A program made the position numbers and the translations under genes. This document shows, one piece after another, positions 17,138-32,629 of a stretch of DNA of 36,448 nt (positions within the stretch are counted from its first letter, which is position 1; the number at the start of each line of letters is the position of its first letter). Where the stretch lies: contig CAMNVD010000003.1 in NCBI GenBank assembly GCA_946562005.1, positions 1 to 36,448 on the forward strand. Direction: 5' to 3'. A model generated the notes under the pieces. The model was not told the DNA's origin, did not search any database, and saw only the letters and a program-made list of their open reading frames with translations. This DNA is from an uncultured Clostridia bacterium (lineage in GTDB: Bacteria; Bacillota; Dehalobacteriia; UBA4068; JAAVYR01).

Positions 17138-17198
17138 AGAGATAACCGTACCTGAGGCGGTATGGGATAGGTTAGCGGGTAGACAGGGTCTTAGGGCC

Positions 17199-17211
17199 TA
17201 TGGTAAAATAA
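17199..17211 (+). repeat. attL core TATGGTAAAATAA
   Basis: Identical to 32288-32300; adjacent to the integrase 3' end; arm-like TTTGTTGCAAAT (17259 and 32176) and TTGAACTATT (17279 and 32277) occur at both ends. Confidence 0.85.
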
Positions 17212-17299
17212 AAACCAGCCCCCCAAAAAACCTTGATTTTATAAGGGATTTCGGGGGCTTTGTTGCAAATGTGTTACATTGAACTATTGAATTGAACAC

Positions 17300-18301
17300 C
17301 TAAATTGAAATCAGTTCAACGGTTGCCCGTAGTTCTTCTATTGTCTTGTGGTTATATACCCGGTTGCCCGTATCTTTGGAAGTATGCCCCATAAGTAAAT
17401 CAATGCAGCGGCGATTTCCCCCAGCAGCATCAAGCAAGGTTTCAAAGGTGTGGCGGCACTCATGCGGGGTGTGCTGCATTTCCAGCTTCCCCATGATTTC
17501 AGCCCATATTGCCCGGTAAGCGGTGGTTGAAATTGGCTTGCCATTTTGGGAGATCAGCCGGGGCGGGTTGCTGGCAAGGCGGGCTTCTATAAATCCCTTG
17601 ATTTTGGGGTGTATGGGAACAATGCGCCCTTTTCCGGCTTTCGTCTTTGTGCCGCCCTTCATAGTTCCGGCTTCAAGGTCAATATCTTCCGGGCGTAACG
17701 CCAACAGTTCAGAGATACGCCAACCGGAATATATGAAGATAAGCACGGTATCAATCCATTCTTCCACTTGGTGTTTCCATAACCGGGCAATTTCTTCATT
17801 GGTGAACGGTAGGCGGCTTGTGGGCGGGATAGGTTCAGAAGAAAGCAGATCAGAATAACGGCAGGACGATATATCCAGTTCAAGGGCGAATTTATCTAAA
17901 TGCCCCCAAAGGTTTTTGATTGCGCCTTGCGTGGAATAGCCCTTGCCGCAACTATCAATAATATCTTGCATATGATAGGCTTTGATTTGTCTGTATGGCA
18001 TACTGCTTAATGGGGCGCAGTATTTGAAGGCTGATTTCAGGGAACTTTGGTTTGACTTACCCAATTTTGGGGCTTTCTTCTCTTGCCAAAGGTCAAACAA
18101 TTCTTGCAGCGTGATTTTCACCTTGTCAATATCCCACGGGTTGGCGTTGTACGCCGCCAACATTGCAAGCCCTTCTTCCCGGCTTGCCGCATAGCCGATA
18201 ATGGCACAACCCCCGCCTTCGTCTGTTTTCCGCACGATATACGGGCGGCGGCGTTTTCCTGATAGTTTGCTGATTGATCCGTATTTGTTGGGTAGCTTCA
18301 T
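17300..18301 (-). CDS. int: Tyrosine integrase
   Basis: MKLPNKYGSI arm-binding N-terminus; catalytic R (GWRISE), HECRH, LMGH, Y (VYNH); AGAAAGGA RBS before ATG 18301. Confidence 0.95.
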   Translation of the reverse strand: MKLPNKYGSISKLSGKRRRPYIVRKTDEGGGCAIIGYAASREEGLAMLAAYNANPWDIDKVKITLQELFDLWQEKKAPKLGKSNQSSLKSAFKYCAPLSSMPYRQIKAYHMQDIIDSCGKGYSTQGAIKNLWGHLDKFALELDISSCRYSDLLSSEPIPPTSRLPFTNEEIARLWKHQVEEWIDTVLIFIYSGWRISELLALRPEDIDLEAGTMKGGTKTKAGKGRIVPIHPKIKGFIEARLASNPPRLISQNGKPISTTAYRAIWAEIMGKLEMQHTPHECRHTFETLLDAAGGNRRCIDLLMGHTSKDTGNRVYNHKTIEELRATVELISI

Positions 18302-18315
18302 TGTACCGTCCTTTC

Positions 18316-18434
18316 TTGACTTCTGAACCAAAGAACGGTATAATAACAATAGCCATTCAATGATTCTTTGATCGGGTTCGTTGTTTGGTGCTTCGGAAAT
18401 CCTCTGGTATTGCAGTACCGGGGGATTTTCTTTT
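18316..18434 (+). ncRNA. Putative antisense sRNA to the integrase leader
   Basis: TTGACT-17bp-TATAAT at 18316-18344, then ~85 nt ending in hairpin GAAATCCTCTGGTA...TACCGGGGGATTTTC plus T-tract. Confidence 0.5.
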
Positions 18435-18510
18435 ACCTGAATACTCCCCGCTATCACTTGCAGATGATTAGCGGGCGTTTAAGCCGTTGCCCTTTGCAGA
18501 GGGTGGCGGC

Positions 18511-18975
18511 TTATTTCTTTTTCTGTTGTTCTAAAACTTTCTTGTAAAACCTTCCTTCAATCGCTTCTTTTGCCCCAGCTTGCAGTTCTTCAAATTCTGA
18601 TTGTGTAAATTTCGCCTGGTGTCCATCTTTTCCCAATTCAGCAGTATAACTTTCGCCTTCTTCATTTTCTGGTGTAAAGTCAACGGAAAAGCCCATTTCT
18701 TTCAAATAAGCTGTTACCGCCCCAAAGCGTGCTACATTTTCGCCCATATCAGGATATTGCTTATCAAATTCTTCCCAAATGGAAGTATCAGCTAAATCCC
18801 GCAAGTGAACGCCCAAAGCCTTAGCAATTTTGATTAGTATATCTTGCTTAGGTTCACGCTGTTCCTTTTCATATCGCATGATGGCAACACCTGATAAACC
18901 AACCATATATCCTAATTCCTCTTGCGTGTATCCTTTTTCTTTTCTGAAATGCTTGATATTTTCGCCTACGGTCAT
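18511..18975 (-). CDS. XRE-family master repressor (Stl/ImmR-like)
   Basis: HTH (TQEELGYMVGLSGVAIMRYEKEQREP); GAAGGTG RBS before ATG 18975; same strand as int. Confidence 0.88.
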   Translation of the reverse strand: MTVGENIKHFRKEKGYTQEELGYMVGLSGVAIMRYEKEQREPKQDILIKIAKALGVHLRDLADTSIWEEFDKQYPDMGENVARFGAVTAYLKEMGFSVDFTPENEEGESYTAELGKDGHQAKFTQSEFEELQAGAKEAIEGRFYKKVLEQQKKK

Positions 18976-19002
18976 AAATTCACCTTCTTTCAAATTACCA
19001 AT

Positions 19003-19101
19003 AGTATATACTAAAACAACCAAAATGTCAAATTGTTTTTGAAAACCCCTTGACAATCAACCAAAATGTCAGTATAATATAGAAAAACAACCGAAACGGT
19101 A
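19003..19101. promoter_or_regulatory. Divergent promoters with repressor operators
   Basis: Rightward TTGACA(19050)-17-TATAAT(19073); leftward TTGACA(19031)-17-TATACT(19008); CAACCAAAATGTCA at 19017 and 19058, variant CAACCGAAACGGTA at 19088. Confidence 0.8.
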
Positions 19102-19135
19102 GTTTTCCAGCGGGAGTAGAAAGGCGGTAGCAGAT

Positions 19136-19810
19136 ATGAAAGAAACAAGTTTGAAACCCGTGATTGAAAAACTTGAAAATTTATTTTCAAAGTTCAATGA
19201 AAAGTTCTATAACGGTGAACTTCAAGCCCCCGTTATCACGGTAAGCCCGGACACAACAAAAGGTGCTTATGGGTGGTGTACCGCTTGGAAGGCGTGGAGC
19301 GTTGGCGAACAGAAAAAAGTTGCTGACCTTGCAACCCTGACAAAAGAAGCCCTTGAAGCAATGAAGAAAGATGATGGCTTCTATGAAATCAATATTTGTG
19401 CGGAACACCTTGCAAGACCTTTTGAACAGGTTGCGGAAACCCTCTTACATGAAATGGTTCACCTTTACAATCTGCAAATTGGGGTTCAGGACACAAGCAG
19501 GGGCGGCACATACCACAATAAGAAATACAAAGAAGCGGCTGAACAGCACGGCTTGACGGTTGAAAAGGATGCAAAATACGGCTGGACTAAAACAAGCCTG
19601 AATGATGAAGCAAAAGCCTTTGTTGCCGGGATGCAGGATAAGAAGTTTGAACTTCACAGAAAGAGCCTTCCGAAAATCCCCGGTGCAGCTAAAACAAAGC
19701 AGAGTTCCCGGAAATATGTTTGCCCCGTGTGCGGGTGCATTATCAGGGCAACAAAGGAAGTTCATGTTATATGCGGCGATTGCAATGTAGAGTTTGAGGA
19801 AGAAGCCTAA
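19136..19810 (+). CDS. SprT-like zinc metalloprotease with C-terminal Zn ribbon
   Basis: TLLHEMVH (HExxH), YHNKKYK, CPVC...CGDC. Confidence 0.85.
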   Translation: MKETSLKPVIEKLENLFSKFNEKFYNGELQAPVITVSPDTTKGAYGWCTAWKAWSVGEQKKVADLATLTKEALEAMKKDDGFYEINICAEHLARPFEQVAETLLHEMVHLYNLQIGVQDTSRGGTYHNKKYKEAAEQHGLTVEKDAKYGWTKTSLNDEAKAFVAGMQDKKFELHRKSLPKIPGAAKTKQSSRKYVCPVCGCIIRATKEVHVICGDCNVEFEEEA

Positions 19811-19846
19811 ACAGCTTCTTCCCCACCCAAAGAAAGGAAGCTGACT

Positions 19847-20008
19847 ATGAAGCGAATGAAAAGAAAAACCGTTTGGGCGTATTTAGACGGAAAGAAACTT
19901 GTTGATGTAGTGAAAGCAGCCCTTGATAATAATATGATGGTTGACGATATGAAAGCCATTCTGATTAAAGAAAATCCGGGGCATGAAGTAACTTTCAAAT
20001 GTGAATAG
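19847..20008 (+). CDS. Small hypothetical protein (53 aa, not in ORF track)
   Basis: GAAAGGAAG RBS; MKRMKRKTVWAYLDGKKLVDVVKAALDNNMMVDDMKAILIKENPGHEVTFKCE. Confidence 0.7.
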   Translation: MKRMKRKTVWAYLDGKKLVDVVKAALDNNMMVDDMKAILIKENPGHEVTFKCE

Positions 20009-20067
20009 CCCACCTGATGATGGCAAAGTTGGTTACTTGCCGAAATCCCCAATATGGGGATCGTGGG
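20009..20067 (+). ncRNA. Type I hammerhead ribozyme
   Basis: Stem I CCCAC/GTGGG, CTGATGA core, stem II GGCAA/TTGCC, GAAA, stem III TCCCCA/TGGGGA, AUC cleavage triplet (cut after 20062). Confidence 0.8.
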
Positions 20068-20099
20068 AAACCACAAAATCAAACAAGGAAGGTGATAAT

Positions 20100-20336
20100 G
20101 TGAAAATTGATAACAGTAAGTTGGATGTGTTGTTAGCCCGGCGTTGCATGACGATTGCAGACTTGCGAAAAGAAGCATCTTCACAAACCCTAACAAGAAT
20201 TCGACGGGGTGAAAGTGTAAAACCTATCACAGCCGGAAAAATCGCCCTTGCGTTGGGTGTGGATGTAACTGACATTATCGAAAATACCGCTGCAACGGTT
20301 GATAATGGTAAACAGGGGATTTCCGAAGCAAAATGA
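20100..20336 (+). CDS. Cro-like HTH protein
   Basis: GGAAGGTG RBS before GTG 20100; SSQTLTRIRRGESVKPITAGKIALALGVDVTDII. Confidence 0.75.
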   Translation: MKIDNSKLDVLLARRCMTIADLRKEASSQTLTRIRRGESVKPITAGKIALALGVDVTDIIENTAATVDNGKQGISEAK

Positions 20337-20433
20337 AACAGTTTGAACAATCGGCGGCAATGCTGCAACATTCGCCGCAAAATCAAAATCAGGATGAAGT
20401 TTTAGAAAATATAGGAAAGGGGGGATTGTTAAG

Positions 20434-22425
20434 GTGCTGACTTTAGAAGAAGTTGGAAGAATCATATTCAACAATGAATACTGGAAAGGCGGCAACGGCG
20501 GGAATTTCAAAGCCCCGTACAATAACAATGCCCCAAAGCCATTTGAAGAAGCCAAACAATACCGCTACATTTGCGGTGTAATTCAGGAATTTGTTGTTAT
20601 GGTGGATATTGATGATGAAGCCGCTTTTCAATGCAGATTGAACATTGCAAAAGCATTGAAGCAGCATTGTATTGTTATCAAATCACCAAACAAAGGCGGG
20701 CATTTTTATTGGTTCAATCGTGAGATGCAGCCAATCAAGAACAACAGCGGCAACAAAACGCTTCTGACATTGTACCCGGTAGATTATAAAACCGGAATAC
20801 GGCGAATTGAAAGCACCGGGGAAATTAAGAAAGCGAAGTGTGCAGCTTCCCTTTCAAAAGAAGATGGTTCTTTGCGTGAAATCCTCTATGCAAATATCCG
20901 GGAAGATGGAACGCTGGATGAAGTGCCGTTCTATGATTTGCCGCTGAAATCCGGCGCAAAGCATGAGTTCTTGAACATGGGTGAAGGTGACGGAAGGCAG
21001 GACGGGCTTTTTACTTACATGAACCCAATGAAGGCGGCGGGCTATTCCTATGAACAGTTCAAAGAAATTGCTGAATTGATTGAACAATTTGTGTTTGCCA
21101 TTCCTTTGGGTGATGAATTTGAAAATGCAATCCGGCGTGAAGCGTGGGATTCTGTTGATGCCGTAGATCAGGAACGCTTTTTCAGCAAGGGAAAATTCCT
21201 TCATAACAAGTTCGCTGATTATCTAATGGAGAAATACCATATTCGGAAAATCAACGGCTACATTCATAGCTACCAGAACGGGGTTTATATTCCGGGCTAT
21301 GATGCCATTGAAAAAGCCATGCTGAAAGAGATTTCCAGCTTGACACGGACAAAGCAAAATGAAGTGCTGAATTATATTCGGATTCAGGCAGCGGAAATCC
21401 AAAACAGCAAACCCGAACTAATACCGTTCAAAAATGGTTTGCTTGATATTGAACACACTGAACTATTACCGTTTTCCCCGGATTTGGTTGTCACCAATAT
21501 GATCCCGTGGGAATATCGCCCGGAAGCTGTTTCAGAATTGGTTGATGCAGTGCTTGACCGTCTTTCATGCAGGGATGCTGAAATCCGGGCATTGCTGGAA
21601 GAAGTCGGCGGTATGTGCCTTTATAGGGATAACACCATAGGAGGCGGCAAGGCGGTAATTCTGACCGGGGATAAATCCAACGGCAAAAGCACATTCATTT
21701 CAATGCTGCAAGCTATGCTTGGGGCTGACAATGTTTCAAACCTTGATTTTAAGGAACTGGATGGGAAATTTTCAACGGCTATGCTGTTCGGCAAACTGGC
21801 AAATTTGGGGGATGATATTTCAGACAGCTACAAGGAAGATGTTGCGATTTTTAAGAAGATTGTGACAGGCGAACCGATAAAGGCAGAGGAAAAAGGCAAG
21901 CCGCCCTTCAATTTCAAACCCTATGTGAAGCTGGTGTTTTCAGCAAACAGTATTCCCCGGATCAATGATTCAACGGGTGCAGCCTTGCGACGATTGCTGA
22001 TTATTCCCTTAAACGCAAAGTTTTCCGAAAATGATTCCGGCTATGATCCGCAAATTCGGTTGAAGCTATCACAGAAAGAAGCCGTTGAATATTTCATAGT
22101 GCTTTCGATTCAGGGCTTGCAGCGGGTGTTGACAACAAAGAAGTTCACTATTCCGGTAAAGGTGCAGGATGAAAAGGATTCCTATGAGAAAGAAAACAAC
22201 CCTGTTTTGGCATTCATTGATGAAATCGGTACAGATGAAATTATCAATGAACCTACTGCAAAGGTATATAGCCGCTATTGCGAATTTTGCCTTGCGAATG
22301 GATTTAAGGAAATGAGCAAGCTAACTTTTTCAAAGCGGATCAATCAGGCGTTGGGAACAAAAGTTACAACAGCACATACCGGAACGGGTAAAAATCGAAA
22401 ATCTATAAAAGTATTTTCGTTGTGA
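20434..22425 (+). CDS. Primase-helicase (prim-pol plus P4/D5-like SF3 helicase)
   Basis: VDIDD and KGGHFYW primase motifs; Walker A GDKSNGKS; ANLGDDI, FSAN and RRLLIIP motifs. Confidence 0.92.
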   Translation: MLTLEEVGRIIFNNEYWKGGNGGNFKAPYNNNAPKPFEEAKQYRYICGVIQEFVVMVDIDDEAAFQCRLNIAKALKQHCIVIKSPNKGGHFYWFNREMQPIKNNSGNKTLLTLYPVDYKTGIRRIESTGEIKKAKCAASLSKEDGSLREILYANIREDGTLDEVPFYDLPLKSGAKHEFLNMGEGDGRQDGLFTYMNPMKAAGYSYEQFKEIAELIEQFVFAIPLGDEFENAIRREAWDSVDAVDQERFFSKGKFLHNKFADYLMEKYHIRKINGYIHSYQNGVYIPGYDAIEKAMLKEISSLTRTKQNEVLNYIRIQAAEIQNSKPELIPFKNGLLDIEHTELLPFSPDLVVTNMIPWEYRPEAVSELVDAVLDRLSCRDAEIRALLEEVGGMCLYRDNTIGGGKAVILTGDKSNGKSTFISMLQAMLGADNVSNLDFKELDGKFSTAMLFGKLANLGDDISDSYKEDVAIFKKIVTGEPIKAEEKGKPPFNFKPYVKLVFSANSIPRINDSTGAALRRLLIIPLNAKFSENDSGYDPQIRLKLSQKEAVEYFIVLSIQGLQRVLTTKKFTIPVKVQDEKDSYEKENNPVLAFIDEIGTDEIINEPTAKVYSRYCEFCLANGFKEMSKLTFSKRINQALGTKVTTAHTGTGKNRKSIKVFSL

Positions 22426-22610
22426 TGGCACGATTGCGGCACGATTTGGCACTATTGGCGGCACTGTAAAAAGTAATAGAAGTCAATAATGGCACTGTTG
22501 GCACTGTTACGCAGAACTTCTATATAAGAAAAATGATGTTACTTTTATCATAATTTTTTAGAAATATAAGGATATATATAGAAACGCTTAAACCGTGCCA
22601 ACCATGCCAC
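22426..22610. repeat. Putative replication origin (GGCAC iterons around an AT-rich core)
   Basis: GGCAC at 22427, 22438, 22448, 22460, 22491 and 22500; AT-rich 22520-22590; inverted GTGCCA/ATGCCA at 22595 and 22604. Confidence 0.75.
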
Positions 22611-22619
22611 AAATGAATA

Positions 22620-22637
22620 TTGAAAATTAACTTTCAA
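22620..22637. promoter_or_regulatory. 18-bp palindromic site TTGAAAATTAACTTTCAA (copy 1)
   Basis: Exact copies at 24785 and 30182. Confidence 0.7.
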
Positions 22638-22652
22638 GAAAGGCGGTAAACT

Positions 22653-22862
22653 ATGGATCAGGTAAAGATGGAAGAACGCACAGAAATTGAAGGGGTGTTT
22701 TGCCCGTTCTCCGGTAGATTATGCCGGATGAATTGCAGATTTCTAATTGATGTTGAAGAAGGCTGCATAATTGAACAGGGTTGTAAAAACCTTGAACGGA
22801 TTCGGGAAACCCTTGATGAAATGCAGGAACAGGGATTTCAAAAAACAATATATGAGGATTGA
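22653..22862 (+). CDS. Small Cys-rich hypothetical protein
   Basis: GAAAGGCGG RBS; CPF...C...C...C pattern. Confidence 0.65.
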   Translation: MDQVKMEERTEIEGVFCPFSGRLCRMNCRFLIDVEEGCIIEQGCKNLERIRETLDEMQEQGFQKTIYED

Positions 22863-22879
22863 GAAAGGCGGTAAGCACT

Positions 22880-23146
22880 ATGTCAAATGAATTTGTATTG
22901 AACAGGGAAACAATGAACGAACTTGAAACATTTTCAGCGAAGTTTGAACAAATGCGGGGATTGGTTGAATTCCTGAAAGTATTTGTTTGGGGCGAAGTCA
23001 CTGAACGGCATGAAGGCAAGGAAATTGAAAGGCTTGGTTGCTTGGTGGATGCGCTTCTTGATGTATCAATCAGCCGGGAAAATAATTTAGAAACGATTAT
23101 CAAGAAAATCAACACCTTGCCCGATTCGGTAGAAAGTGGTGATTGA
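22880..23146 (+). CDS. Hypothetical protein
   Basis: GAAAGGCGG RBS before ATG 22880; tightly packed operon. Confidence 0.65.
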   Translation: MSNEFVLNRETMNELETFSAKFEQMRGLVEFLKVFVWGEVTERHEGKEIERLGCLVDALLDVSISRENNLETIIKKINTLPDSVESGD

Positions 23147-23314
23147 ATGAAAATCAGAGTTGCATATACAGAGGGCGAACAGGACAAGAAGAAACTGCTT
23201 GAAGAAGCTGCAAAAGCCCTGTTTCCTGATACCAAAGTGAGAGAAACAGCCCCGAAAAACGGCTTTTTACATACGGTTTTGACCGTGCCAAAGCCCGAAA
23301 ATACCACAAAATAA
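23147..23314 (+). CDS. Small hypothetical protein (55 aa, not in ORF track)
   Basis: Starts right after the upstream TGA; MKIRVAYTEGEQDKKKLLEEAAKALFPDTKVRETAPKNGFLHTVLTVPKPENTTK. Confidence 0.6.
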   Translation: MKIRVAYTEGEQDKKKLLEEAAKALFPDTKVRETAPKNGFLHTVLTVPKPENTTK

Positions 23315-23324
23315 GGTGTTTCAC

Positions 23325-23473
23325 TTGACGGATACCCCCTATATATGGTATAATTATCAAAAATAAATATGGCGTGAGTACCGCATACCCCGCTTGTGGG
23401 GCGTGTTAGTCTTGATTTCAAGGCATGGGAAGCAATCAGACGGAAACCGTCTTTTTGTTGCTCATGCCTTTTT
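23325..23473 (+). promoter_or_regulatory. sigmaA promoter with structured leader
   Basis: TTGACG-18bp-TATAAT (TGn extended); hairpin AAGGCATG...AGACGGAAACCGTCT...CATGCCTTTTT. Confidence 0.55.
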
Positions 23474-23505
23474 CATTTGGAAATTACAGAAAAGAGGTTA
23501 AAAAC

Positions 23506-24249
23506 ATGACGAAAGATCAGTTGAAAAAATATCTTGATGGCGTGATTGATGATATTCGCACCTTGTATATCAAGACACAGGAAAAGTTGCGGGAGATTCA
23601 AAAGAAAGCAAACAGCGAATGGACAACGGTTTATAATGTTCCGGTTCATATGACACCGGATCAGCAAGCGGCGAATGCGGCGGTTATGCAGGATGCCGCA
23701 AATAAACTGAATCAGGAATACAAAGAAGCTGTTGAAAAGGCAATTCAGGAAGCCACAGATACGATTGCAGCGGTGAAGAAATCTGCAATTCAGGATTTAA
23801 CCGCCGCTGAACCCGTTCCCACCGATATTCAGTTGCGGATGGCTGAACAGATCAAGAAAGAGTACAGAAACGGCAATAACGCCCTTTCCCTTGACCGGGT
23901 AAAGCAGTTTGAAGCTGATATGAATTATCATGTGGAAAATGAAACGGTGAAGGCATACCCCTTCTATTTGGCGGCTAAAGACCTGTTCCCGGATAATGGC
24001 GGCAATGCGGATATTCTGAACGCTGCATATATGAAGTTGTTCCCAGCGATTGCTGAAAAGCAGGATGTTCTTGATGGAATTGGAGAGTGTGAACGCTTTT
24101 TCAGGGCGGCAATTATCACACATAAACTTGATACGATTACCGCCATAAATTCAGAAGCAGATCAACTTGAAGTAATCCGTTTGAAGGAAGAACTTGCTTC
24201 ACTTGGCGAAATTGGAAGCCTGAATCAGCGTGTTATTCAATATTCATAA
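23506..24249 (+). CDS. Hypothetical helical/coiled-coil protein (247 aa)
   Basis: GAGG RBS before ATG 23506; Ala/Glu/Lys-rich helical sequence. Confidence 0.7.
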   Translation: MTKDQLKKYLDGVIDDIRTLYIKTQEKLREIQKKANSEWTTVYNVPVHMTPDQQAANAAVMQDAANKLNQEYKEAVEKAIQEATDTIAAVKKSAIQDLTAAEPVPTDIQLRMAEQIKKEYRNGNNALSLDRVKQFEADMNYHVENETVKAYPFYLAAKDLFPDNGGNADILNAAYMKLFPAIAEKQDVLDGIGECERFFRAAIITHKLDTITAINSEADQLEVIRLKEELASLGEIGSLNQRVIQYS

Positions 24250-24268
24250 GAAAGGCAAGGTGTAGATC

Positions 24269-24439
24269 ATGTTCAAGGTATCAAAGAAACCGAAAACCCC
24301 TAATATGATTTGGGATAGTGAAAAGAACTGTTTGCTTTGCAAATTTGTAAAGGGCATTTTTGAAACTGATGATGCGGGTGTGGCTGATAAGCTGGAAAGC
24401 ATGGGGCATACAGTAACAGAGATTCCGAATGAATCTTAA
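24269..24439 (+). CDS. Small phage-like hypothetical protein (56 aa, not in ORF track)
   Basis: AAGGTG RBS; MFKVSKKPKTPNMIWDSEKNCLLCKFVKGIFETDDAGVADKLESMGHTVTEIPNES. Confidence 0.65.
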   Translation: MFKVSKKPKTPNMIWDSEKNCLLCKFVKGIFETDDAGVADKLESMGHTVTEIPNES

Positions 24440-24511
24440 CTTTTCAAATGGGGGTTGTGGGGACTTTCTCGCAATCCCCATTGTGCTATCAAAATGAAAG
24501 GTGTGAAGCAG

Positions 24512-24784
24512 ATGAAAGCATTAGACAGGCTTATTATTAAGGCGAAGAAGAAATGCGGTGTTGACCGTTTGGAAGTCGGCTTTATTTCCCCATCTGAAAA
24601 GCAAAAGGGGAAATGGGTTGCAAGGGGTGACATTTGGAACGGTGTACCCGGCAACGGTGTTAGGTCAATTATGTATGGCGAATATGATTCTGTTGAAGAA
24701 GCGGAAAAGGCTTTGAACGAGTTAGCGGAACAATACCCCAATAATAAAGATGTTTTTATATTCATTGAAAATATTCTTGAATAA
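24512..24784 (+). CDS. Hypothetical protein
   Basis: AAGGTG RBS before ATG 24512. Confidence 0.65.
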   Translation: MKALDRLIIKAKKKCGVDRLEVGFISPSEKQKGKWVARGDIWNGVPGNGVRSIMYGEYDSVEEAEKALNELAEQYPNNKDVFIFIENILE

Positions 24785-24802
24785 TTGAAAATTAACTTTC
24801 AA
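24785..24802. promoter_or_regulatory. 18-bp palindromic site (copy 2)
   Basis: TTGAAAATTAACTTTCAA. Confidence 0.7.
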
Positions 24803-24822
24803 AAGTGAAAGAAGGTGATTAT

Positions 24823-25032
24823 ATGGCAAGGCGAAACTTAAAACTTGATACCCCGGATAATATCAGAAAAGCCCTTGCTAAAGTGGCAAATATGGTTTAC
24901 AAAGGTGAACTTGATACAAAGATTGTAAACAGCTTTATTCTTGCCTGTAACGCTATTTTAAGCGGCATACGCACGGATGAACAGGAAAAGAAGATTGCTG
25001 AATTGGAACGGATTATAAACGAAAATGAATAA
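24823..25032 (+). CDS. Small helical hypothetical protein (possibly small-terminase-like oligomerisation fragment)
   Basis: GAAGGTG RBS; helix-turn-helix followed by coiled coil (EQEKKIAELERII); function is a guess. Confidence 0.6.
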   Translation: MARRNLKLDTPDNIRKALAKVANMVYKGELDTKIVNSFILACNAILSGIRTDEQEKKIAELERIINENE

Positions 25033-25061
25033 TCCAATTCAGCGGAAAGGAGATTCGGAGC

Positions 25062-25259
25062 ATGAGAAAACCAATACCCATTTCCGAAACACTGATTCTT
25101 CAAGAAGAAAAACGCCTTCGGGAACAGGCTGGAAATATTATCGCCGCTAAAGAAATTGGAATCAGTCAACAGAGCATTGATAAAATGATTGCTTGTTTCT
25201 CCATTTCAAAGGCGTATTATGACGATCTGAAAAGGCGGTATGAAGAAAATGGAAAATGA
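25062..25259 (+). CDS. Hypothetical protein
   Basis: GGAG RBS; overlaps the sigma factor start. Confidence 0.6.
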   Translation: MRKPIPISETLILQEEKRLREQAGNIIAAKEIGISQQSIDKMIACFSISKAYYDDLKRRYEENGK

Positions 25260-26214
25260 AGAATTGGTTGAACAAATACAAGCCGGGATTAAGCCAACTG
25301 AAAATATGGAACAGCTTTATTTGCAGAACCGTTCTTTCATTTACCAGCAGGCAAAGAAATATGCCGCTTATGCTGATATGGATGATTTAATGCAGGAAGC
25401 CTATTTTGGACTACATGAAGCCGTGAAGCATTACAAGCCCGATAAAGAAACAAAGTTCCTTACTTATCTTCCCTTCCGGCTGCAAAAGGCGTTTCGCCGT
25501 TATATCGACAATAACGGACATACCAAAAGAATTCCGGTTCATTTGGTTCAACGAATTTCAAAGTATAGGAAATATATTTCTGAACAGGCAAAGCAAGGTG
25601 TTGAACCGTCTGATTTTGAAATATGCCGGGATTTGGAATTGTCTGAACAGCAGCTTAAAGATTTACGGAAGGCAATGCGTGAAGCGGAATGTATCAGCAC
25701 AAGCGATTTTGTACCCGGTTTAGATAATATGACCGTGGAAGAATCCCTTGCCGATCCGCTGGGTATGGAAGAACAAGTGATTGATGAAGTCGCAAGAGAA
25801 CAAGCGGAAAGCCTGATCTGGAAGATTGTTGATGAACTGGAAGAACGGCAAGCAGAAGTGATTGTTGGGCGGTATAAAGAATTGGCTACTTTGAAAGAAA
25901 TCAGCAAGCGGTTGAATCTTTCATATCAGCGTATCAGGCAAATAGAAAAGAAAGCCCTATACATTCTACAAAGCAAGCATGAAATCAGCGATATAGCCGA
26001 AATATACGGTTATATGAACGCTTACCGGGGAACAGGGTATCAGGCTTTCAAGAATGGCGGTTCTTCCGTTGAAAACGCAGCTATCAAGCATATAGAAGGA
26101 GAAGCGAGGATCAAGGCAATGCAGCAGAGAATCAAGCAGCAGAAAACGGAAATTCTAACTACTTTGAATATGGATGAACTATTTTCAAAGGTTCTGAACC
26201 TTGCTTCACAGTAA
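25240..26214 (+). CDS. Sigma-70 family RNA polymerase sigma factor
   Basis: Region 2 DDLMQEAYFGLHEAVKHY...KFLTY, KRIPVHL, region 4 TLKEISKRLNLSYQRIRQIEKKAL. Confidence 0.88.
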   Translation: MKKMENEELVEQIQAGIKPTENMEQLYLQNRSFIYQQAKKYAAYADMDDLMQEAYFGLHEAVKHYKPDKETKFLTYLPFRLQKAFRRYIDNNGHTKRIPVHLVQRISKYRKYISEQAKQGVEPSDFEICRDLELSEQQLKDLRKAMREAECISTSDFVPGLDNMTVEESLADPLGMEEQVIDEVAREQAESLIWKIVDELEERQAEVIVGRYKELATLKEISKRLNLSYQRIRQIEKKALYILQSKHEISDIAEIYGYMNAYRGTGYQAFKNGGSSVENAAIKHIEGEARIKAMQQRIKQQKTEILTTLNMDELFSKVLNLASQ

Positions 26215-26230
26215 AGAAAGGGGATTTGAA

Positions 26231-26512
26231 ATGTATAAGCATCAGGAACAGTTTTTGAAAATTACACAGGAGTATAACAGACAGATCAGTTTGCTTTTGG
26301 GTATGGCAGAAAAGGCTAACCGAAAGCAAATTGAACGGCTAACGCCAATTTTGCAGAAATTGAAAAGTTCACTTCAAAAATTGATAAATCAGCAAGAGCG
26401 ATTCAAACAGTGCGTTCATAATCCAGGGAAATATAAAGCCCTCTTGCAGCCTTATATTTCTTTGCTGGATGAAACAAAGGCAGAGATTGAAAAGCTAGGT
26501 GAAAAGACTTGA
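26231..26512 (+). CDS. Hypothetical coiled-coil protein
   Basis: AAAGGGG RBS before ATG 26231. Confidence 0.6.
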   Translation: MYKHQEQFLKITQEYNRQISLLLGMAEKANRKQIERLTPILQKLKSSLQKLINQQERFKQCVHNPGKYKALLQPYISLLDETKAEIEKLGEKT

Positions 26513-26940
26513 ATCCCAATATTGAAGTTATTACGCCGGAATTGTGGGCGGTAAACAGTGGCTACATAAAAGCCGGATGGATTCGGGAATTATCGCCTGT
26601 TCCGGGGCTGGAAAGCGTAAACAAATATGCTTCCCTGACAAATGACGGTATTATGATCCTGAAAAAAGAATCAGAGTTTTACCCGATATTGAAACAGCTT
26701 GTACCTAAAATTATGCTGCATACGGATGAAGAATTGCAACTTTGCCACAAGTTGAATCATAAGGCGGTGCTTGATGATTATGAAAAGCTATATTTGAATG
26801 TTATGGAATGGGAAATTGAAAGGCGGCGTGTTCGGGCGGATTATCTGAACCGCTTCCCCCGCCCAACATTGAAAAACAGGATCAGAAAATTATTGCAGAA
26901 GGTAGGTGAAAAATTTGGCTACTATCAGAACAGCGATTGA
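26509..26940 (+). CDS. Hypothetical protein
   Basis: Overlaps both the upstream stop and the TMP start. Confidence 0.65.
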   Translation: MNPNIEVITPELWAVNSGYIKAGWIRELSPVPGLESVNKYASLTNDGIMILKKESEFYPILKQLVPKIMLHTDEELQLCHKLNHKAVLDDYEKLYLNVMEWEIERRRVRADYLNRFPRPTLKNRIRKLLQKVGEKFGYYQNSD

Positions 26941-29500
26941 ACTTTATGATGCGTTTTCTGCACCGCTTATGAATGTAATTCAAGCGGTAAATCAGGGAGT
27001 TTCTGCAATGGAAACCATGCACGCAACCATGAATGAACCTGTTTCCGTGTCGATTGCGGACGGGATTGCAGAGCAAATGAATCAGGCGGTGCAAGCTATT
27101 GAAGAAGCAAGGGCGGCATTGTCTGAACCTGTTACCCATGAAAATACAAGCGTTACTTGGGATAGCCTCACAATGCCAACCTTCACAAATTCCGGGGCTG
27201 ACCGTTTCCAGCAGGAAGTTCAGAGTGCAAACGCCATGTTGGAGCAACTGAACCAGACCCAACGGAATATAGCGGCACAGGCTGAACGGGTGCAACTGTT
27301 CCCTTCAAATATGGTGAATGATATGAATACCATGCAAAGCCGTATTCAAGGCATTCAGGAAAGAATTCAAACCATAGAAAATAACCCCTTGAATTTGGGA
27401 ACAGATCAAGCTAACGCTGAATTGGAGTATTTGCGTAACAATTTGAATCAGGCAGTTCAGACACAGAATGAAATGAACGCTGCAATTCAGAACATGGACA
27501 TTACAACCGCCAATGATGCGTATATCCGGCTTTCAAATACCATTTCAGGAACAGAAAGATATATCCGTGATAATGTTGACGAACAAGGGCGGTTCAACCG
27601 TGAAATTGAAGAAGGCACGAATGAAGCCAATGAACTAATGCAGACAATCAAGGGGGCGGTTGCGGCATACGCTACAATTCAAACCCTTTCAGCGGCGTTG
27701 AACTTATCGGATCAGCTTACTTCCACAACCGCCCGCTTGAATTTGATGAATGACGGGCTGCAAACCACACAGGACTTGCAGAACATGATTTATCTTTCAG
27801 CGGAACGGGCAAGGGGCAGCTATCAGGCAACCGCTGATGCCGTTTCCAAACTTGGACTTATGGCGGGTGATGCGTTCAGCAGTTCGGAAGAAATCATTGC
27901 CTTCATGGAACAGGTGAATAAGCAATTTACCATTGCTGGAACGGAAGCGGCGGGCATTGATGCCGCTATGTTGCAGCTTACACAAGCAATGGGTTCAGGC
28001 GTTCTTCGTGGCGAGGAATACAACAGCATTTTGGAGCAAGCCCCGAATATCATTCAGGCGATTGCTGATTATATGGAAGTTCCAAAGGGGCAATTAAAGG
28101 ATATGGCAGCGGAAGGACTAATCACCGCTGACATTGTAAAGGCGGCTATGTTTGCGGCGGCTGATGATACCAATGCAAAGTTTGAACAGATGCCGAAAAC
28201 CTTTTCGCAAATTTGGACTTCTTTTCAGAATACCGCTTTGATGGCATTTCAGCCCGTTCTTCAAAGAATGAATGAAATTGCCAATAGTGAAGCGTTTCAG
28301 GGCTTTGTGAACAATGCGATTGAAGCCCTATCAATGGTGGCGGGCATTGCCCTTGAAATCTTTGATTTGCTTGTGGGCGTTGCTGAAATCGTTGGTGAAA
28401 ATTGGTCGTGGCTATCCCCTATCATTTACGGTGTAGCCGGGGCTTTGGCTGTTTACTACGGCTGGTTGCTGTTGACAAAAGGGGCAGCGTTAGCAACCGC
28501 AGCGGCACAAGGTGCATTGACACTTGCTAAAATGCTTGCCGTTCCTGTTTACGCCGCTTTAACGGGTGCGACAATGGCAGATACGGCGGCACAATGGGGG
28601 CTGAATTCTGCAATGTACGCTTGCCCTATCGTGTGGATCATTATTCTTATAATCGCCCTGATAGCCCTATTCTATGCGGCGGTGGCGGCGGTGAATAAAT
28701 TCGCCGGAACTTCCGTTTCCGCAACGGGTATAATTTGCGGGGCGTTCATGGTTGCCCTTGCCTTTATCGGCAATATCTTTGTTGCCCTTTGGAATTTGGT
28801 TGTGGATGTGTTCGTGCTTATCTATAACCTTGTGGCAACCGTGGCAAACTTTATCGGCAATGTATTCACCGATCCTATCGGTGCGGTTTGTCGATTGTTC
28901 TTTGATTTGGCTGATACCGTGCTTGGAATTCTTCAAGCGTTGGCTTCGGCTATTGATGCAATCTTCGGTTCAAACCTTGCGGGAAGTGTTCAGGGTTGGC
29001 GTGATTCTCTTGGCGGTTGGGTTGATGAAACCTTCGGTAAGGGTGATGAAGTAATGGCAAAAATGAACGCTGACGATATGAAACTTGGGCGGTTTGAATA
29101 CGGGGCAGCTTGGGATGCCGGGTATTCCTTTGGTGAAGGCATTGATGAAAGCATTGCGAATTTCGATCCTTCCAGCCTGTTTGATACCAATGTACCGGGT
29201 GCGGGTGACTACGCCGATTTGAGCAATTACGGGGCGGGGCTTGCCGGGGATGTTGGCGATATAGCGGGCAACACCGGGGCAATCAAGGATTCAATGGATA
29301 TTACAGAAGAAGATTTGAAATATCTTCGTGACATTGCCGAACAGGAAGCGATAAACAGATTTACAACCGCTGAAATCAATATAGAAGCACCAATAACCAA
29401 CCAAATTTCTAAAGATGTTGATTTGGATGGAGTAGTTGACGGGCTGACGGGTGCAGTAAATGAAGCGGCTGACATTATAGCGGAAGGCGTACACATTTAG
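26915..29500 (+). CDS. Stand-alone tape measure protein (~861 aa) carried by the satellite
   Basis: Tape-measure core (SAERARGSY...QLTQAMGSGVLRGEEYNSILEQAP), hydrophobic segments, C-terminal RDIAEQEAINRFTTAE...AEGVHI; AGGTG RBS before TTG 26915. Confidence 0.92.
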   Translation: MATIRTAIELYDAFSAPLMNVIQAVNQGVSAMETMHATMNEPVSVSIADGIAEQMNQAVQAIEEARAALSEPVTHENTSVTWDSLTMPTFTNSGADRFQQEVQSANAMLEQLNQTQRNIAAQAERVQLFPSNMVNDMNTMQSRIQGIQERIQTIENNPLNLGTDQANAELEYLRNNLNQAVQTQNEMNAAIQNMDITTANDAYIRLSNTISGTERYIRDNVDEQGRFNREIEEGTNEANELMQTIKGAVAAYATIQTLSAALNLSDQLTSTTARLNLMNDGLQTTQDLQNMIYLSAERARGSYQATADAVSKLGLMAGDAFSSSEEIIAFMEQVNKQFTIAGTEAAGIDAAMLQLTQAMGSGVLRGEEYNSILEQAPNIIQAIADYMEVPKGQLKDMAAEGLITADIVKAAMFAAADDTNAKFEQMPKTFSQIWTSFQNTALMAFQPVLQRMNEIANSEAFQGFVNNAIEALSMVAGIALEIFDLLVGVAEIVGENWSWLSPIIYGVAGALAVYYGWLLLTKGAALATAAAQGALTLAKMLAVPVYAALTGATMADTAAQWGLNSAMYACPIVWIIILIIALIALFYAAVAAVNKFAGTSVSATGIICGAFMVALAFIGNIFVALWNLVVDVFVLIYNLVATVANFIGNVFTDPIGAVCRLFFDLADTVLGILQALASAIDAIFGSNLAGSVQGWRDSLGGWVDETFGKGDEVMAKMNADDMKLGRFEYGAAWDAGYSFGEGIDESIANFDPSSLFDTNVPGAGDYADLSNYGAGLAGDVGDIAGNTGAIKDSMDITEEDLKYLRDIAEQEAINRFTTAEINIEAPITNQISKDVDLDGVVDGLTGAVNEAADIIAEGVHI

Positions 29501-29506
29501 CCCCAC

Positions 29507-29540
29507 GATCCCCCGGTGAAATATCCGGGGGATTTTTCTT
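29507..29540 (+). terminator. Intrinsic terminator after the satellite TMP
   Basis: ATCCCCCGG-TGAAATAT-CCGGGGGAT-TTTTCTTT. Confidence 0.8.
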
Positions 29541-29543
29541 TAC

Positions 29544-29572
29544 TTGACTATTCGTTACCAATAGTATATAAT
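29544..29572 (+). promoter_or_regulatory. sigmaA promoter of the AbrB-like gene
   Basis: TTGACT-17bp-TATAAT; contains TTACCAATAGTATATA, also found at 18995-19010. Confidence 0.75.
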
Positions 29573-29613
29573 AAATTCAAAGTAATTGAACACATTTCAA
29601 AGGGGGTGTAAGT

Positions 29614-30177
29614 ATGGAAACACGAAAGGGAAATATGATTTTTGGGAAAGCTGGCGGTAATGCAAGCCGGAATTCTTATACTTGTAAAGTATCTGTTCCC
29701 AAAACATGGGTTGACCGAATGGGGCTAACCCATGAACAGCGGGAAATAGAACTTGCCTTTGATGGAGATAGGATCACGATTGATAGACCGGAACACAGCC
29801 CGGTAAAACATACCCCATTAGCAAGCAATCAGAAAATCCGGCGTTTTGCCTTGCTTTGGATGCAGATGTATAAAAACCACGCTTCCACACCCGGCTTCTA
29901 TTTTGAAGATGTTTCCTTTGTTGGTGAAGGGCTTGCAGATTTAGGCTTTGAAATGGATTGTGGGGAATCCTTCAAGGCAGCTTTCCCAAACTGTAATTTA
30001 GGCGATTGCGAAGCGTGGAAACGGATTGTGAATCAGATTGACAGTGTGCAGCTTTTGGGGGATGCGATTTTCTCACAATGGCGGTACTGGAATCATTGGA
30101 GTAATGCACCAATGGAAGAAGCTGATTTTGAATGGTTTGCGCTTGCCTTTTCCCGGCTGGCTGAACTGGCGGCATGA
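29614..30177 (+). CDS. AbrB/MazE-like DNA-binding domain fused to an unknown domain
   Basis: KVSVPKTWVDRMGLTHEQREIELAFDGDRITID swapped-hairpin pattern; Trp-rich C-terminal domain. Confidence 0.7.
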   Translation: METRKGNMIFGKAGGNASRNSYTCKVSVPKTWVDRMGLTHEQREIELAFDGDRITIDRPEHSPVKHTPLASNQKIRRFALLWMQMYKNHASTPGFYFEDVSFVGEGLADLGFEMDCGESFKAAFPNCNLGDCEAWKRIVNQIDSVQLLGDAIFSQWRYWNHWSNAPMEEADFEWFALAFSRLAELAA

Positions 30178-30181
30178 TGTT

Positions 30182-30199
30182 TTGAAAATTAACTTTCAA
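30182..30199. promoter_or_regulatory. 18-bp palindromic site (copy 3)
   Basis: TTGAAAATTAACTTTCAA. Confidence 0.7.
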
Positions 30200-30344
30200 T
30201 CTGTTTTCCCCTTTCATATTGCAAGCCCCTAACCAAAGTATCAAAGCCTTTCTGTTTCCGCTTATATAGCCGTTATATGAACCTCTGATATAATATTCCT
30301 TGCCGTTTGTGCGGCAAAATCTTATATTTCAGGAGGTTCAGAAG

Positions 30345-32015
30345 ATGAACAGAAACAGAAGAACAGTATTTTTCAGGATCATGGCAACAATTATGTGTGC
30401 CGCTTGCGTGGTGGTTATGTGTTCGGGCTATCAGGCAAGGGCAGAAACAACCGCTGATTTCCCCATAGCGAAAAATGGGAATCAGCTTCTTCAAGCGATT
30501 GCCGCCGCTGATGATGGCGATACAATCGGAATTTCTGATATGATTGCCTTTTATGAGGGGGTAACGATTGGAGCAGAGGACAAACGAATTACTATTGTTC
30601 GGATGAATGAGAATGCTTTTTTGTCCTTTACCGGATCGGATTCTTCTTTGGTGCAAAATGTTGTATTTGACGGGGGAAACATAGAATCCAATTACCCTAT
30701 GATTAGTTCACAATGTTCTTTAACCGTTGAAAACAGCATTTTTCAAAATTGCATTTGCAATGGTGAAGGTGCTGCACTTGGATTTTATTCTGATGAACTT
30801 AACATTGCAAGTTGTGTTTTCAAAGATAATTGGGCATATCGTGGCGGTCATGTTTACATAGCCACTTTGAGAGAAGCAACAATTTCAAGTTGCACTTTTA
30901 AGAATGGAGAAGCCAAAGAACAAGGTGGGGCATTGTATGTAACAGGTGAAACCAAAATAAGAAATAGTGTTATTACTAACAATCGGGCGAACTATGGCGG
31001 TGGCATTTATCACGGCAGTCAAAATTGTATTATATCCGGCACAAAGATTTATTATAATTCGGCTAACATTTATGGTTCAGATTATGCTACTGAAACTCCT
31101 TATTTCTATTTTGCCGAATCGGTTGCTGAACTTACGGAATTATTTGCACCTGATAATTTGAAACCTGTTGAATGGGAGATTTCTAACAATAGCGGGGTTG
31201 ATGGATTTAAGTTGATTTTGGAAACACTTACACCTATTGAACCTGAACAACCCACAACTCCAGAAAAACCGGAAACGCCGACAGAACCAGAAAACCCGGA
31301 TGAACCCGACAAGCCAACCGAACCGGAAAACCCCGAGAACCCCGAGAACCCGAATCAGCCGGACACGCCCACAGAGCTGGGGGAGAATGAGCCGCCCAAA
31401 GATGAATCGGGAACAGGAACGGACAAGCCCGCAGAAGGTGAAAATAAGCCTTCCGAACCTGAAACACCCCCGGATGATACCCAAAATAAGGGGGATGAAC
31501 AGCCGCCCGCCGATAACCCGGAAGAAAAACCCGGTGTAAGCGGTTCAGGGAACGCCCCGGCAACCCCTTCCGATTCAACGGGGAATAATGGCGGCAATAA
31601 TACCAGCAATTCAACAAGCACCACCACAACCAGCGACAACAGAACAACGGATAATTCCGACAATTCCCGGTATTCCAGCACCAGCGATTCTAACAATACA
31701 TCCACGGTGAATAATTACTATCAGCAGGAAAAACAACCTTCCAGCAGCGGGGAATCGGTTCAAACAATCGTTGTCCCTGTTGGCAACACTGGAAACGGCG
31801 AACCGCTGCAACAAACAATCAGAGTTGAAAACCCGGAAGGAACAACGGCAACGGGAAGTTTGGAAGGCTTGACCTTGAATATCAATGTGAACACAGCTTC
31901 ACAGGATCAGGCGGCAAATACTTCCCCTGTTCAGCAAAGCGGAATATCTTGGTATCAAGCAATCGTTTTGTGCCTTCTGTCTGCTATTTTGGTTTGCTTG
32001 TTGAAAAGCCGCTGA
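30345..32015 (+). CDS. Surface protein: signal peptide, right-handed beta-helix, Pro/Glu stalk, C-terminal membrane anchor
   Basis: AGGAGG RBS before ATG 30345; FxxN...GG(A)L/I repeats; PENPD/PTEP repeats; Ser/Thr/Asn-rich tract; terminal hydrophobic helix ending KSR. Confidence 0.8.
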   Translation: MNRNRRTVFFRIMATIMCAACVVVMCSGYQARAETTADFPIAKNGNQLLQAIAAADDGDTIGISDMIAFYEGVTIGAEDKRITIVRMNENAFLSFTGSDSSLVQNVVFDGGNIESNYPMISSQCSLTVENSIFQNCICNGEGAALGFYSDELNIASCVFKDNWAYRGGHVYIATLREATISSCTFKNGEAKEQGGALYVTGETKIRNSVITNNRANYGGGIYHGSQNCIISGTKIYYNSANIYGSDYATETPYFYFAESVAELTELFAPDNLKPVEWEISNNSGVDGFKLILETLTPIEPEQPTTPEKPETPTEPENPDEPDKPTEPENPENPENPNQPDTPTELGENEPPKDESGTGTDKPAEGENKPSEPETPPDDTQNKGDEQPPADNPEEKPGVSGSGNAPATPSDSTGNNGGNNTSNSTSTTTTSDNRTTDNSDNSRYSSTSDSNNTSTVNNYYQQEKQPSSSGESVQTIVVPVGNTGNGEPLQQTIRVENPEGTTATGSLEGLTLNINVNTASQDQAANTSPVQQSGISWYQAIVLCLLSAILVCLLKSR

Positions 32016-32030
32016 TTTTGGCTTTATATG

Positions 32031-32077
32031 GGGTTTTCCCCCGCAGTCTATAACTTCATAGGTTGCGGGGGAAACTC
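32031..32077. terminator. Hairpin after the surface protein gene
   Basis: GGGTTTTCCCCCGCAG...TTGCGGGGGAAACTC. Confidence 0.55.
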
Positions 32078-32287
32078 TCTATATAGGGCTTATATGAGGG
32101 CGTAGGGAGCAAGGGAAACCATGCTTCAACCTTTGCTTTTTGATTGTCTGAACGGGCGAAAGGCGGTGTTGTAAATTTGTTGCAAATACCCCTGAAAAAA
32201 TGCAAAGTTTCACAGAGCATTATATATTGAACCCGCATAAAATCAGGGCTTTTCACGCCTTGCATAGCATTGAATTTTGAACTATTT

Positions 32288-32300
32288 TATGGTAAAATAA
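32288..32300 (+). repeat. attR core TATGGTAAAATAA (also the extended -10 of the downstream promoter)
   Basis: Identical to 17199-17211; TTGAAT(32270)-17bp-TAAAAT(32293). Confidence 0.85.
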
Positions 32301-32524: not shown

Positions 32525-32589
32525 GATGTTTATAGGCTTGTTTTGGTGCGTCCAAAATTAGCGAGAAAATGTGTTCCGCAGAAAAGTTC

Positions 32590-32629
32590 GGCTGCGGCAG
32601 TGTTTGTATACGCTGCCGCAGCCTTTTTT
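32590..32629 (+). terminator. Riboswitch expression-platform terminator
   Basis: GGCTGCGGCAG...CTGCCGCAGCC-TTTTTT. Confidence 0.85.

Follow-up and report, generated by a model that had tools for sequence, protein, structure and literature searches.

The window analysed here is a stretch of 36,448 nucleotides from the genome of an uncultured Clostridia bacterium (contig CAMNVD010000003.1; the genome is designated G000). It contains an integrase-bearing element of 15,089 bp (17212–32300), which appears to have recombined inside the extended -10 box of a sigma-A-type promoter belonging to a host gene under a cobalamin riboswitch. The right arm of the element probably rebuilds this promoter by placing a new -35 hexamer before the retained -10, and the same design seems to be shared by the whole integrase clade. 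We assign this reading a probability of about 0.7. It is built on the junctions and empty sites, on evidence that the core motif marks promoters, and on the conservation of core, hexamer, spacing, and orientation. The features of the attachment (att) site and its host neighborhood are as follows:

15899..17137, plus strand: TrpB-like pyridoxal phosphate enzyme gene, left neighbor of the att site (NCBIfam NF009057, 618.9 bits; Pfam PALP).
17180..17185, plus strand: native host -35-like hexamer TAGACA, 18 bp from the -10, which stays at attL after integration (promoter scan).
17199..17211, plus strand: attL copy of the core, TATGGTAAAATAA.
17213..17264: hairpin separating the core from the integrase gene (int), folding at -24.2 kcal/mol on the minus strand, where it is followed by GGUUUUUAUUUU, and at -19.8 kcal/mol on the plus strand.
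32020..32090, plus strand: very stable hairpin after the last gene of the element (-43.1 kcal/mol, z -6.8; a stability reached by 0 of 200 shuffles), which probably insulates attR or terminates transcription before it.
32166..32287, plus strand: conserved right (P) arm, 76–93% identical in four other genomes with different cargo.
32270..32275, plus strand: -35-like hexamer TTGAAT of the element, 17 bp from the -10 (promoter scan).
32288..32300, plus strand: attR copy of the core, whose -10 would now serve the host gene.
32330..32540, plus strand: cobalamin riboswitch aptamer (RF00174, 50.3 bits against a gathering score of 31.5, model positions 1–189), starting 30 nt 3' of the attR repeat.
32590..32623, plus strand: terminator-like hairpin and T-run (14-pair stem, then TTTTTTGTTT), probably the expression platform of the riboswitch.
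32683..36447, plus strand: riboswitch-controlled gene of a large secreted or surface protein (aBig_2, Glug, and DUF4430 domains; ribosome-binding site and ATG at 32683); the open reading frame (ORF) leaves the window.

The element is bounded by the exact 13-bp direct repeat TATGGTAAAATAA, present in attL and attR, and has a matching empty site, as is expected of a tyrosine recombinase product. The repeat contains TG, one further base, and TAAAAT, i.e., an extended -10 box; in attR, the TAAAAT falls at 32293–32298. Elsewhere in the window, the core was matched with up to one mismatch at a single place, 14611, with 0.11 matches expected by chance. Promoter scanning returned exactly two sites, TAGACA(17180)-18 bp-TAAAAT and TTGAAT(32270)-17 bp-TAAAAT, both with the TG; shuffled sequence also yields about one site per region, and the scan alone is not significant. 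An earlier inspection of the letters alone (hereafter the sequence-only reading) had taken the att core for an extended -10 box, with which both repeat and scan agree, and had proposed that the end of the element contributes TTGAAT 17 bp from TAAAAT; this hexamer and its spacing were found by the scan and are kept in 10 of 10 related right junctions.

The third expectation of the sequence-only reading, that rejoining of the flanks gives TAGACA-18 bp-TAAAAT before the riboswitch, was borne out by real empty sites of exactly this form. In a sister species (G002), whose site holds no element, the stop of the TrpB-like gene, which adjoins the site there as well, is followed by TAGACA, 18 bp, TATGGTAAAATAAGG (the same 13-mer, then GG), and the riboswitch. 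In two mouse-gut metagenome runs (X4 and X1), DNA contigs of the same species as the window connect position 17198 straight to 32288; 15,089 bases are skipped, and the 13 letters of the core fit either side. The empty-site contig of X4 was 1082 nt long at a depth of 25, that of X1 had a depth of 5.5, and their flanks are near-identical to the window (2 other letters in 299). The hexamer TAGACA and the 18-bp spacing are thus repeated in both the sister species and the metagenomes.

In another relative (G001), the 13-mer and the riboswitch are uninterrupted, the left neighbor is different, and the -35 is TTGACG at 17 bp. Judging from its sequence, this locus is best read as another empty site with another left neighbor. 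A second element at the same site of G001 (locus L003), suggested at first by the M23 lysin gene directly beside the promoter and by the -35 TTGACG, was rejected: the -35 region matches those of G000 and G002 at approximately 13 of 18 positions, and the lysin gene lies within a tail-like cluster that is chromosomal in the genus. MAFFT alignment of the G001 upstream region had no decisive outcome. Riboswitches orthologous to that of the window follow the empty sites of G002 and G001 (Rfam, scores of 49.5 and 52.9 bits). The core and the sequence downstream of it are conserved in both relatives, and the sequence further upstream is not; since this promoter persists next to different upstream genes, the riboswitch gene is served by a promoter of its own and does not depend on read-through. 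A second, independent empty site was found in genome G071, which carries TTGAGA-17-TATGGTATAATA uninterrupted; its left side is the attL flank of the element of genome G052, and its right side is the attR flank of the same element.

The core behaves as a promoter motif throughout the genome. The common core YRTGGTAHAATAA occurs at 22 sites of G000, both att copies included, compared to 2 sites for the reversed control. On a crude ORF map covering 81% of the genome, 17 of the 22 sites are intergenic, and a co-oriented ORF starts within 400 nt of 15 of the 22, mostly at 15–126 nt. The columns 5' of the 22 sites at 17-bp spacing read T (16 sites), T (11), G (12), any base, and A (14), i.e., TTGnA, a sigma-70-type -35. 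Exact copies of the 13-mer number 8 in G000, 8 in G001, and 7 in G002, and with up to one mismatch there are 38 in G000 vs. 8 for the control. Judged from these counts, the core is the promoter consensus of the organism rather than a unique sequence. As in a sigma-A extended -10 promoter, TGn is combined with TAnAAT, a -35-like hexamer lies 16–18 bp upstream, a co-oriented unit follows downstream, and the arrangement is conserved in relatives. The one-mismatch copy inside the window (TGTGGTAAAATAA, 14611–14623) is situated between the holin and lysin genes of a tail-like cluster, 80 nt 5' of the lysin ORF; this copy, one of the 22 sites, probably acts as an internal promoter.

The last ~134 bp of the element are conserved in four other genomes and in 7 metagenome loci. 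The latter are the true relatives among 13 loci retrieved from metagenomes with a 19-nt right-arm pattern (the other 6 matched by chance); in IMG/VR, all 8 matches to an 18-nt right-arm pattern were due to chance. All 10 distinct right junctions have TTGAAT (9) or TTGTAT (1) followed by 12 nt and TATGG, which amounts to 17 bp to the -10 hexamer. In prophages whose integrases belong to this clade, the arms are of other types, which could not be aligned with that of the window element. Among them, TTGCAG or TTGCGG stands at 17 bp in prophages of approximately 45 kb in three genomes (G067, G064, and G062) and in a complete, terminally redundant phage (G056), where the hexamer is part of attP. In a 46-kb prophage of genome G066, TTGCAA occupies the same place.

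Relatives of the integrase with 60–93% identity were found in IMG/VR contigs (149) and in GTDB genomes (35), with hosts including Acutalibacter, Acetatifactor, Lachnospiraceae, Oscillospiraceae, Faecalibacterium, Faecousia, and others. Altogether 115 loci were examined, namely 80 of the 149 IMG/VR relatives and all 35 from genomes. No close relative was present in the organism's own genus and order, where the best match in 51 genomes was 36% identical. Named phages (50,697 records) gave a best match of 36% identity, and in Butyrivibrio phage Arawn, whose integrase is 36% identical, int is not followed by such a core; the core property is not general to distant relatives. In approximately 87 of the 115 loci, the complement of YRTGGTAHAATAA follows the int terminator hairpin with up to two mismatches; the search was anchored on the motif at the int 3' end, and 28 loci failed it.

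A 60-nt flank was available for 84 loci, of which 26 show the phage arm (attP or the same arm) and the other 58 represent 56 distinct flanks. TTG at exactly 17-bp spacing occurs in 12 of the 56 distinct flanks, with a mean of 1.3 at other offsets. In genome contigs, where the flank must be host DNA, the count was 7 of 21 against a background of 0.47 (binomial 2.4e-7), and a further 3 of the 21 had TTG at 16 or 18 bp; among viral loci, TTG at 17 bp was found in 5 of 35. Right junctions were resolved in 9 of 13 cases. All nine are followed by a co-oriented host gene starting 37–383 nt downstream. In the window this is the riboswitch gene; in the relatives it is uvrB, hsdM, pmbA/tldD, or a gene for a DUF1349 protein, a solute-binding protein, an XRE regulator, a small secreted protein, or an unknown protein. 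Four junctions were left out: that of Acetatifactor muris is followed first by a repeat array, L145 contains Ns, L149/L155 has an odd core, and G062 lies at a contig end. For the prophages of G061, G063, and G065, attR was not found within 45–60 kb with up to one mismatch or with the arm probe.

Paired att sites mostly share 12–13 bases (the window, G055, G054, G052, G067, and G066). In G064, attL and attR differ at core positions 2 and 10 and share TGCTACA, and therefore the exchange is bounded to positions 3–9. The reconstructed attP core would consist of the inverted pair TTTAT / ATAAA around GGTAnA, the usual layout of core-type sites.

From these data we propose the following course of integration. 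The attP core TTTAT-GGTAnA-ATAAA, with YRTGGTAHAATAA as the common core, would mimic TGnTAnAAT, and any matching -10 box could be attB. Crossover would occur within positions 3–9 (TGGTAnA), to judge by the paired att sites, from which we also infer the exact points. Integration would part the host -35 from the host gene, splitting the promoter between -35 and -10. At attR, the TTGAAT of the element would then stand exactly 17 bp 5' of the retained -10, followed by the host gene; this chimeric promoter is predicted to fire, and TTGAAT would be kept for promoter function. The stable hairpin after the last element gene would keep read-through from reaching the attR promoter. Left behind at attL, the host -35 and the other copy of the -10 would face the int terminator hairpin. 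On the minus strand, the hairpin at 17213–17264 is the int terminator, its U-tract being the complement of the core, and relatives have an equivalent hairpin; transcripts of the orphaned attL promoter would run into it on the plus strand. The same design would apply across the integrase clade (at least 60% identical), both to elements of 9–15 kb and to prophages of ~45 kb in gut Clostridia. As far as can be judged from sequence comparison, the case of the window would be one of target-restoring site-specific integration, extended to the level of a clade.

Several observations weigh against this proposal. TTGAAT is a member of a TTGAAY motif that recurs in both arms (32228–32282 and 17270–17312), and it may be kept as a binding site of the integrase or an accessory protein; it may have both roles, -35 and integrase arm site, or be an arm site only. 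Since a -35 is often dispensable at extended -10 promoters, the hexamer may also be of little weight. The 3' half of the core, rich in A, doubles as the int terminator's U-tract. TTG at 16–18 bp is present in no more than a third to a half of the host flanks. At the metagenome loci L149/L155, the conserved arm and TTGAAT are followed by TATGACTACATATG, a poor -10-like core, which may represent an off-target or secondary site. In G062, and possibly in A. muris, attL and attR differ at core position 8, which calls for an overlap that tolerates a mismatch or is shorter than usual. The A. muris attL (contig C50) and attR (contig C8) differ at 2–3 core positions and may stem from different copies. 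None of the metatranscriptome contigs (runs X12 and X13) covers 32328–33400, i.e., the riboswitch and the host gene. In Lachnospiraceae hosts, finally, a dispersed modular repeat opens with the target core.

An unlikely alternative to the rebuilt promoter is that the element did insert in the -10 box, with the -35 look of its arm being incidental. TTGAAT would then be an arm-type or accessory site, the extended -10 would suffice for transcription of the host gene, or that transcription would run at a changed level, and there would be no selection for promoter repair. The TG-extended -10, the long N-terminal part of the integrase, typical of arm-binding integrases, and the presence of TTGAAY about three times in the right arm and four to five times in the left arm are all in line with this account. 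It is at odds with the fact that three mutually unalignable arm types all set TTG at exactly 17 bp. Moreover, the TTGCAG of the phage arm is unlike the motif repeated in that arm (TTCAG/TTCAC), and the native promoters of G000 show TTGnA at equal spacing.

The functional inference of the sequence-only reading amounts to a switch, in which reversible integration and excision (active lysogeny) would alter the expression of the B12-regulated surface protein by exchanging TAGACA-18 for TTGAAT-17. Occupied and empty sites do coexist in the species, the two -35 hexamers differ in sequence and spacing, and a precedent exists in the SpyCI islands in mutL (PMC3430984). We nevertheless regard a switch as rather improbable: the evidence of active lysogeny seen for the window element is polymorphism between strains only; the empty site of X4 and X1 is found at the host's own depth, which points to element-free strains rather than to excision in a lysogen; and no circular-form (attP) joint is among the metagenome joints listed. 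The link to B12 proved to be incidental, as relatives occupy the promoters of unrelated genes (uvrB, hsdM, pmbA/tldD, DUF1349, solute-binding protein) and nothing ties the system to B12.

Tyrosine recombinase cores are often AT-rich, and the complement of the core is the U-tract after the int hairpin; still, that the -10 likeness is a by-product of this double use, with targets that are not promoters as such, is highly improbable and largely refuted by the invariant TGGTA, which a U-tract does not need, by host-flank TTG at exactly 17 bp far above background, and by the co-oriented gene at 9 of 9 resolved junctions together with the motif marking promoters genome-wide.

Integrases that target tRNA genes or gene 3' ends (lambda-like and P4-like ones, and that of phage 21 in icd) carry a replacement for the displaced part. 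The system proposed here resembles them in site-specific tyrosine recombination, in the short common core, and in a copy of the displaced part that keeps the target functional. It differs in what is targeted, a promoter -10 box, and in what is replaced, a -35 hexamer; the target is also generic, with many instances per genome (8 exact copies in G000) instead of one gene. Integrases of the Tn916/Tn1549 type tolerate mismatched crossover regions. They are also Firmicutes tyrosine recombinases with many AT-rich targets, and position 8 differs in some of our att pairs. Similarity to them is only distant; here, a defined 13-bp core is kept, and direct repeats form the ends in place of variable coupling sequences. 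A mismatch-tolerant overlap of the Tn916/Tn1549 kind would, by analogy, fit the mismatch at position 8, which we take as a lead and not as a result.

TnGBS integrative and conjugative elements and the insertion sequences ISLre2/ISKra4 use Mutator-like DDE transposases and insert 15–17 bp 5' of the -35 of sigma-A promoters, leaving the promoter whole (PMC3942029). They are likewise mobile elements of Firmicutes aimed at sigma-A promoters in a fixed orientation, by which gene disruption is avoided (PMC3942029). In contrast, the window element has a tyrosine integrase, and its insertion lies inside the -10, so that the promoter is split and rebuilt. SpyCI islands of Streptococcus pyogenes integrate in the 5' end of the mutL coding region and block transcription, and in one strain a cryptic promoter inside a decayed int gene keeps the downstream genes expressed (PMC3430984). 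They share with our element the small size, the integrase, the satellite-like character, and the position at the 5' end of a host transcription unit; the rescuing promoter there, unlike here, is not a conserved part of an att arm. No published description of an integrase or integrase clade with a -10-box core and an arm-supplied -35 was found in full-text literature searches.

In the prevailing view, temperate phages and satellites integrate at targets that are conserved and unique, such as tRNA genes and gene ends, and repair them with a copy of the displaced end. Here, the target would be the -10 box, the commonest short functional sequence in a bacterial genome, and the repair would concern the -35 of a promoter. 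If this is true, a wide host range would be expected, which would explain a copy with 87–98% DNA identity in hosts as different as the organism of the window (1.2 Mb) and Acetatifactor muris. Each lysogen would have a chimeric promoter before a different host gene, a source of expression differences between gut strains. The integrase would be a tool with a landing site in essentially every Firmicute. Boundary calling of prophages would also be affected, since sites inside intergenic promoter motifs are easily missed. The claim can be tested directly in A. muris DSM 23669, a carrier that is in culture.

A broader version of the proposal is possible, and we put it forward tentatively. The clade may use the sigma-A extended -10 as a near-universal att site with tolerance for variation at the crossover's middle position, so that its phages and satellite-like elements would find a place to land in any Firmicute genome, and the portable -35 may make a working chimeric promoter at every insertion. 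The landing sites in Lachnospiraceae would then be dispersed promoter-associated tandem repeats, initiated by TGGTATAAT, which are maybe products of such recombinases or pads for them. The repeat units in Lachnospiraceae hosts are 72–113 nt long, each beginning with TGGTATAAT (TGATATAAT in some), and occur in 1–4 tandem copies at dozens of loci per genome. They are always located between a unique -35 (at 17–18 bp) and a gene start (L179 2170–2440, minus strand; L190–L197; L132 1214–1510). One type of unit holds an 11-bp palindrome built on the -10. The repeats matched no Rfam family and are absent from G000.

The genes of the element, apart from ORFs without any family, are as follows:

17300..18457, minus strand: tyrosine integrase (PF00589, 63.2 bits against a cutoff of 27.1; phrog_1, E 2e-41).
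18511..19056, minus strand: HTH_3 (Cro/CI-type) repressor-like protein (PHROGs, Pfam).
19136..19810, plus strand: SprT-like metallopeptidase-like protein (phrog_6361).
20434..22425, plus strand: P4-family primase / D5-type helicase, replication module (phrog_864, E 1e-144; DUF5906, D5_N, and Pox_D5; TIGR01613, 206 bits).
25240..26214, plus strand: sigma-70 family factor, first gene of the variable cargo block (Sigma70_r2 and r4; phrog_351).
26906..29500, plus strand: tape-measure protein homologue of 864 aa, cargo (PF20155, phrog_1068; 42% identity to tape-measure proteins of C. difficile phages).
29614..32015, plus strand: two cargo ORFs of 187 aa and 571 aa, the latter resembling a right-handed beta-helix protein.

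The translated integrase contains GWRISEL, KAGKGR, HECRH, GHTS, and RVYNH, which were aligned to a XerC-like structure and which we take to be the catalytic R..K..HxxR..H..Y of the family pattern. The protein probably starts in reality close to residue 53, the point from which most relatives align. Matches in PDB were a XerC-like protein and the "Int protein" of 6en0/6emy/6emz (E ~6e-9 over the C-terminal 80 residues), presumably the Int of Tn1549.

The designation of the element as a satellite in the sequence-only reading was upheld in part. Its size (15.1 kb, with relatives of 9.3–15 kb) and gene content (int, HTH_3 repressor, P4-family primase) are those of a satellite; on the other side, no packaging or hijacking gene and no helper phage were identified. 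Among the scanned ORFs, which include approximately eight without a family and the tape-measure homologue, no head, capsid, portal, terminase, or lysis gene was detected with Pfam, PHROGs, and NCBIfam. Genes for redirection of helper packaging (small terminase, capsid-size, or interference genes) had no family match in Pfam, PHROGs, or PADLOC, and no PADLOC family at all was detected in the element. We therefore call the element satellite-like; its membership in the class is plausible from the gene content.

A collinear copy of the element occurs in A. muris DSM 23669 (87–98% DNA identity), split over two contigs. Shorter relatives, such as a 9.3-kb element (G055:C17 22171–31368), keep int, the replication part, and both att arms and are devoid of the block at ~25.0–32.16 kb, which is therefore an exchangeable cargo slot. 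In run X12, the joint 24803 -> 32167 likewise shows a short variant passing straight to the conserved right arm. The 187-aa and 571-aa cargo ORFs had no Pfam, NCBIfam, or PADLOC family, and hence no defence match; the beta-helix resemblance of the 571-aa ORF comes from an Atlas feature match to beta-helix clusters (score 0.96), which is a lead only.

Metatranscriptome contigs from X12 and X13 (at least 99% identity) cover int (17263–18296) and 29645–32100 and almost nothing else of the element. These contigs hint at expression of int and of both right-end cargo ORFs while the element is integrated. The RNA data consist of contigs, which cannot show transcript starts, ends, or strand; that an X13 contig stops at 32100, by the hairpin of 32020–32090, is a weak hint only.

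Upstream of the TrpB-like gene, TTGACA-17-TATAAT is followed by a T-box leader (15384–15681; RF00230, 73.6 bits, E 5.5e-16, with the gathering score of 93 not reached), and therefore the long ORF listed from 15410 is over-extended. Similarity to the sister species G002, represented here by a short contig, starts just 5' of the -35 of this promoter.

The left part of the window (1213–15281) encodes a LexA/CI-like repressor and a small sigma-like regulator, then sheath, tube, XkdN-like, tape-measure, baseplate, fibre, holin, and M23 lysin genes. The cluster lacks genes for head, portal, and terminase; it looks like a tail-like bacteriocin cluster of the PBSX/diffocin type, not a full prophage. 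The 864-aa tape-measure homologue of the element aligns end to end with the 508-aa tape measure of this cluster (5846–7372) with 32% identity (E 4e-70), and the C-terminal end is well conserved between the two. As pure speculation, the cargo (tape measure, beta-helix-like 571-aa ORF, and sigma factor) might re-tool the resident tail machine. The tail sheath protein of the cluster is 82% identical in G002 and 51% identical in G001.

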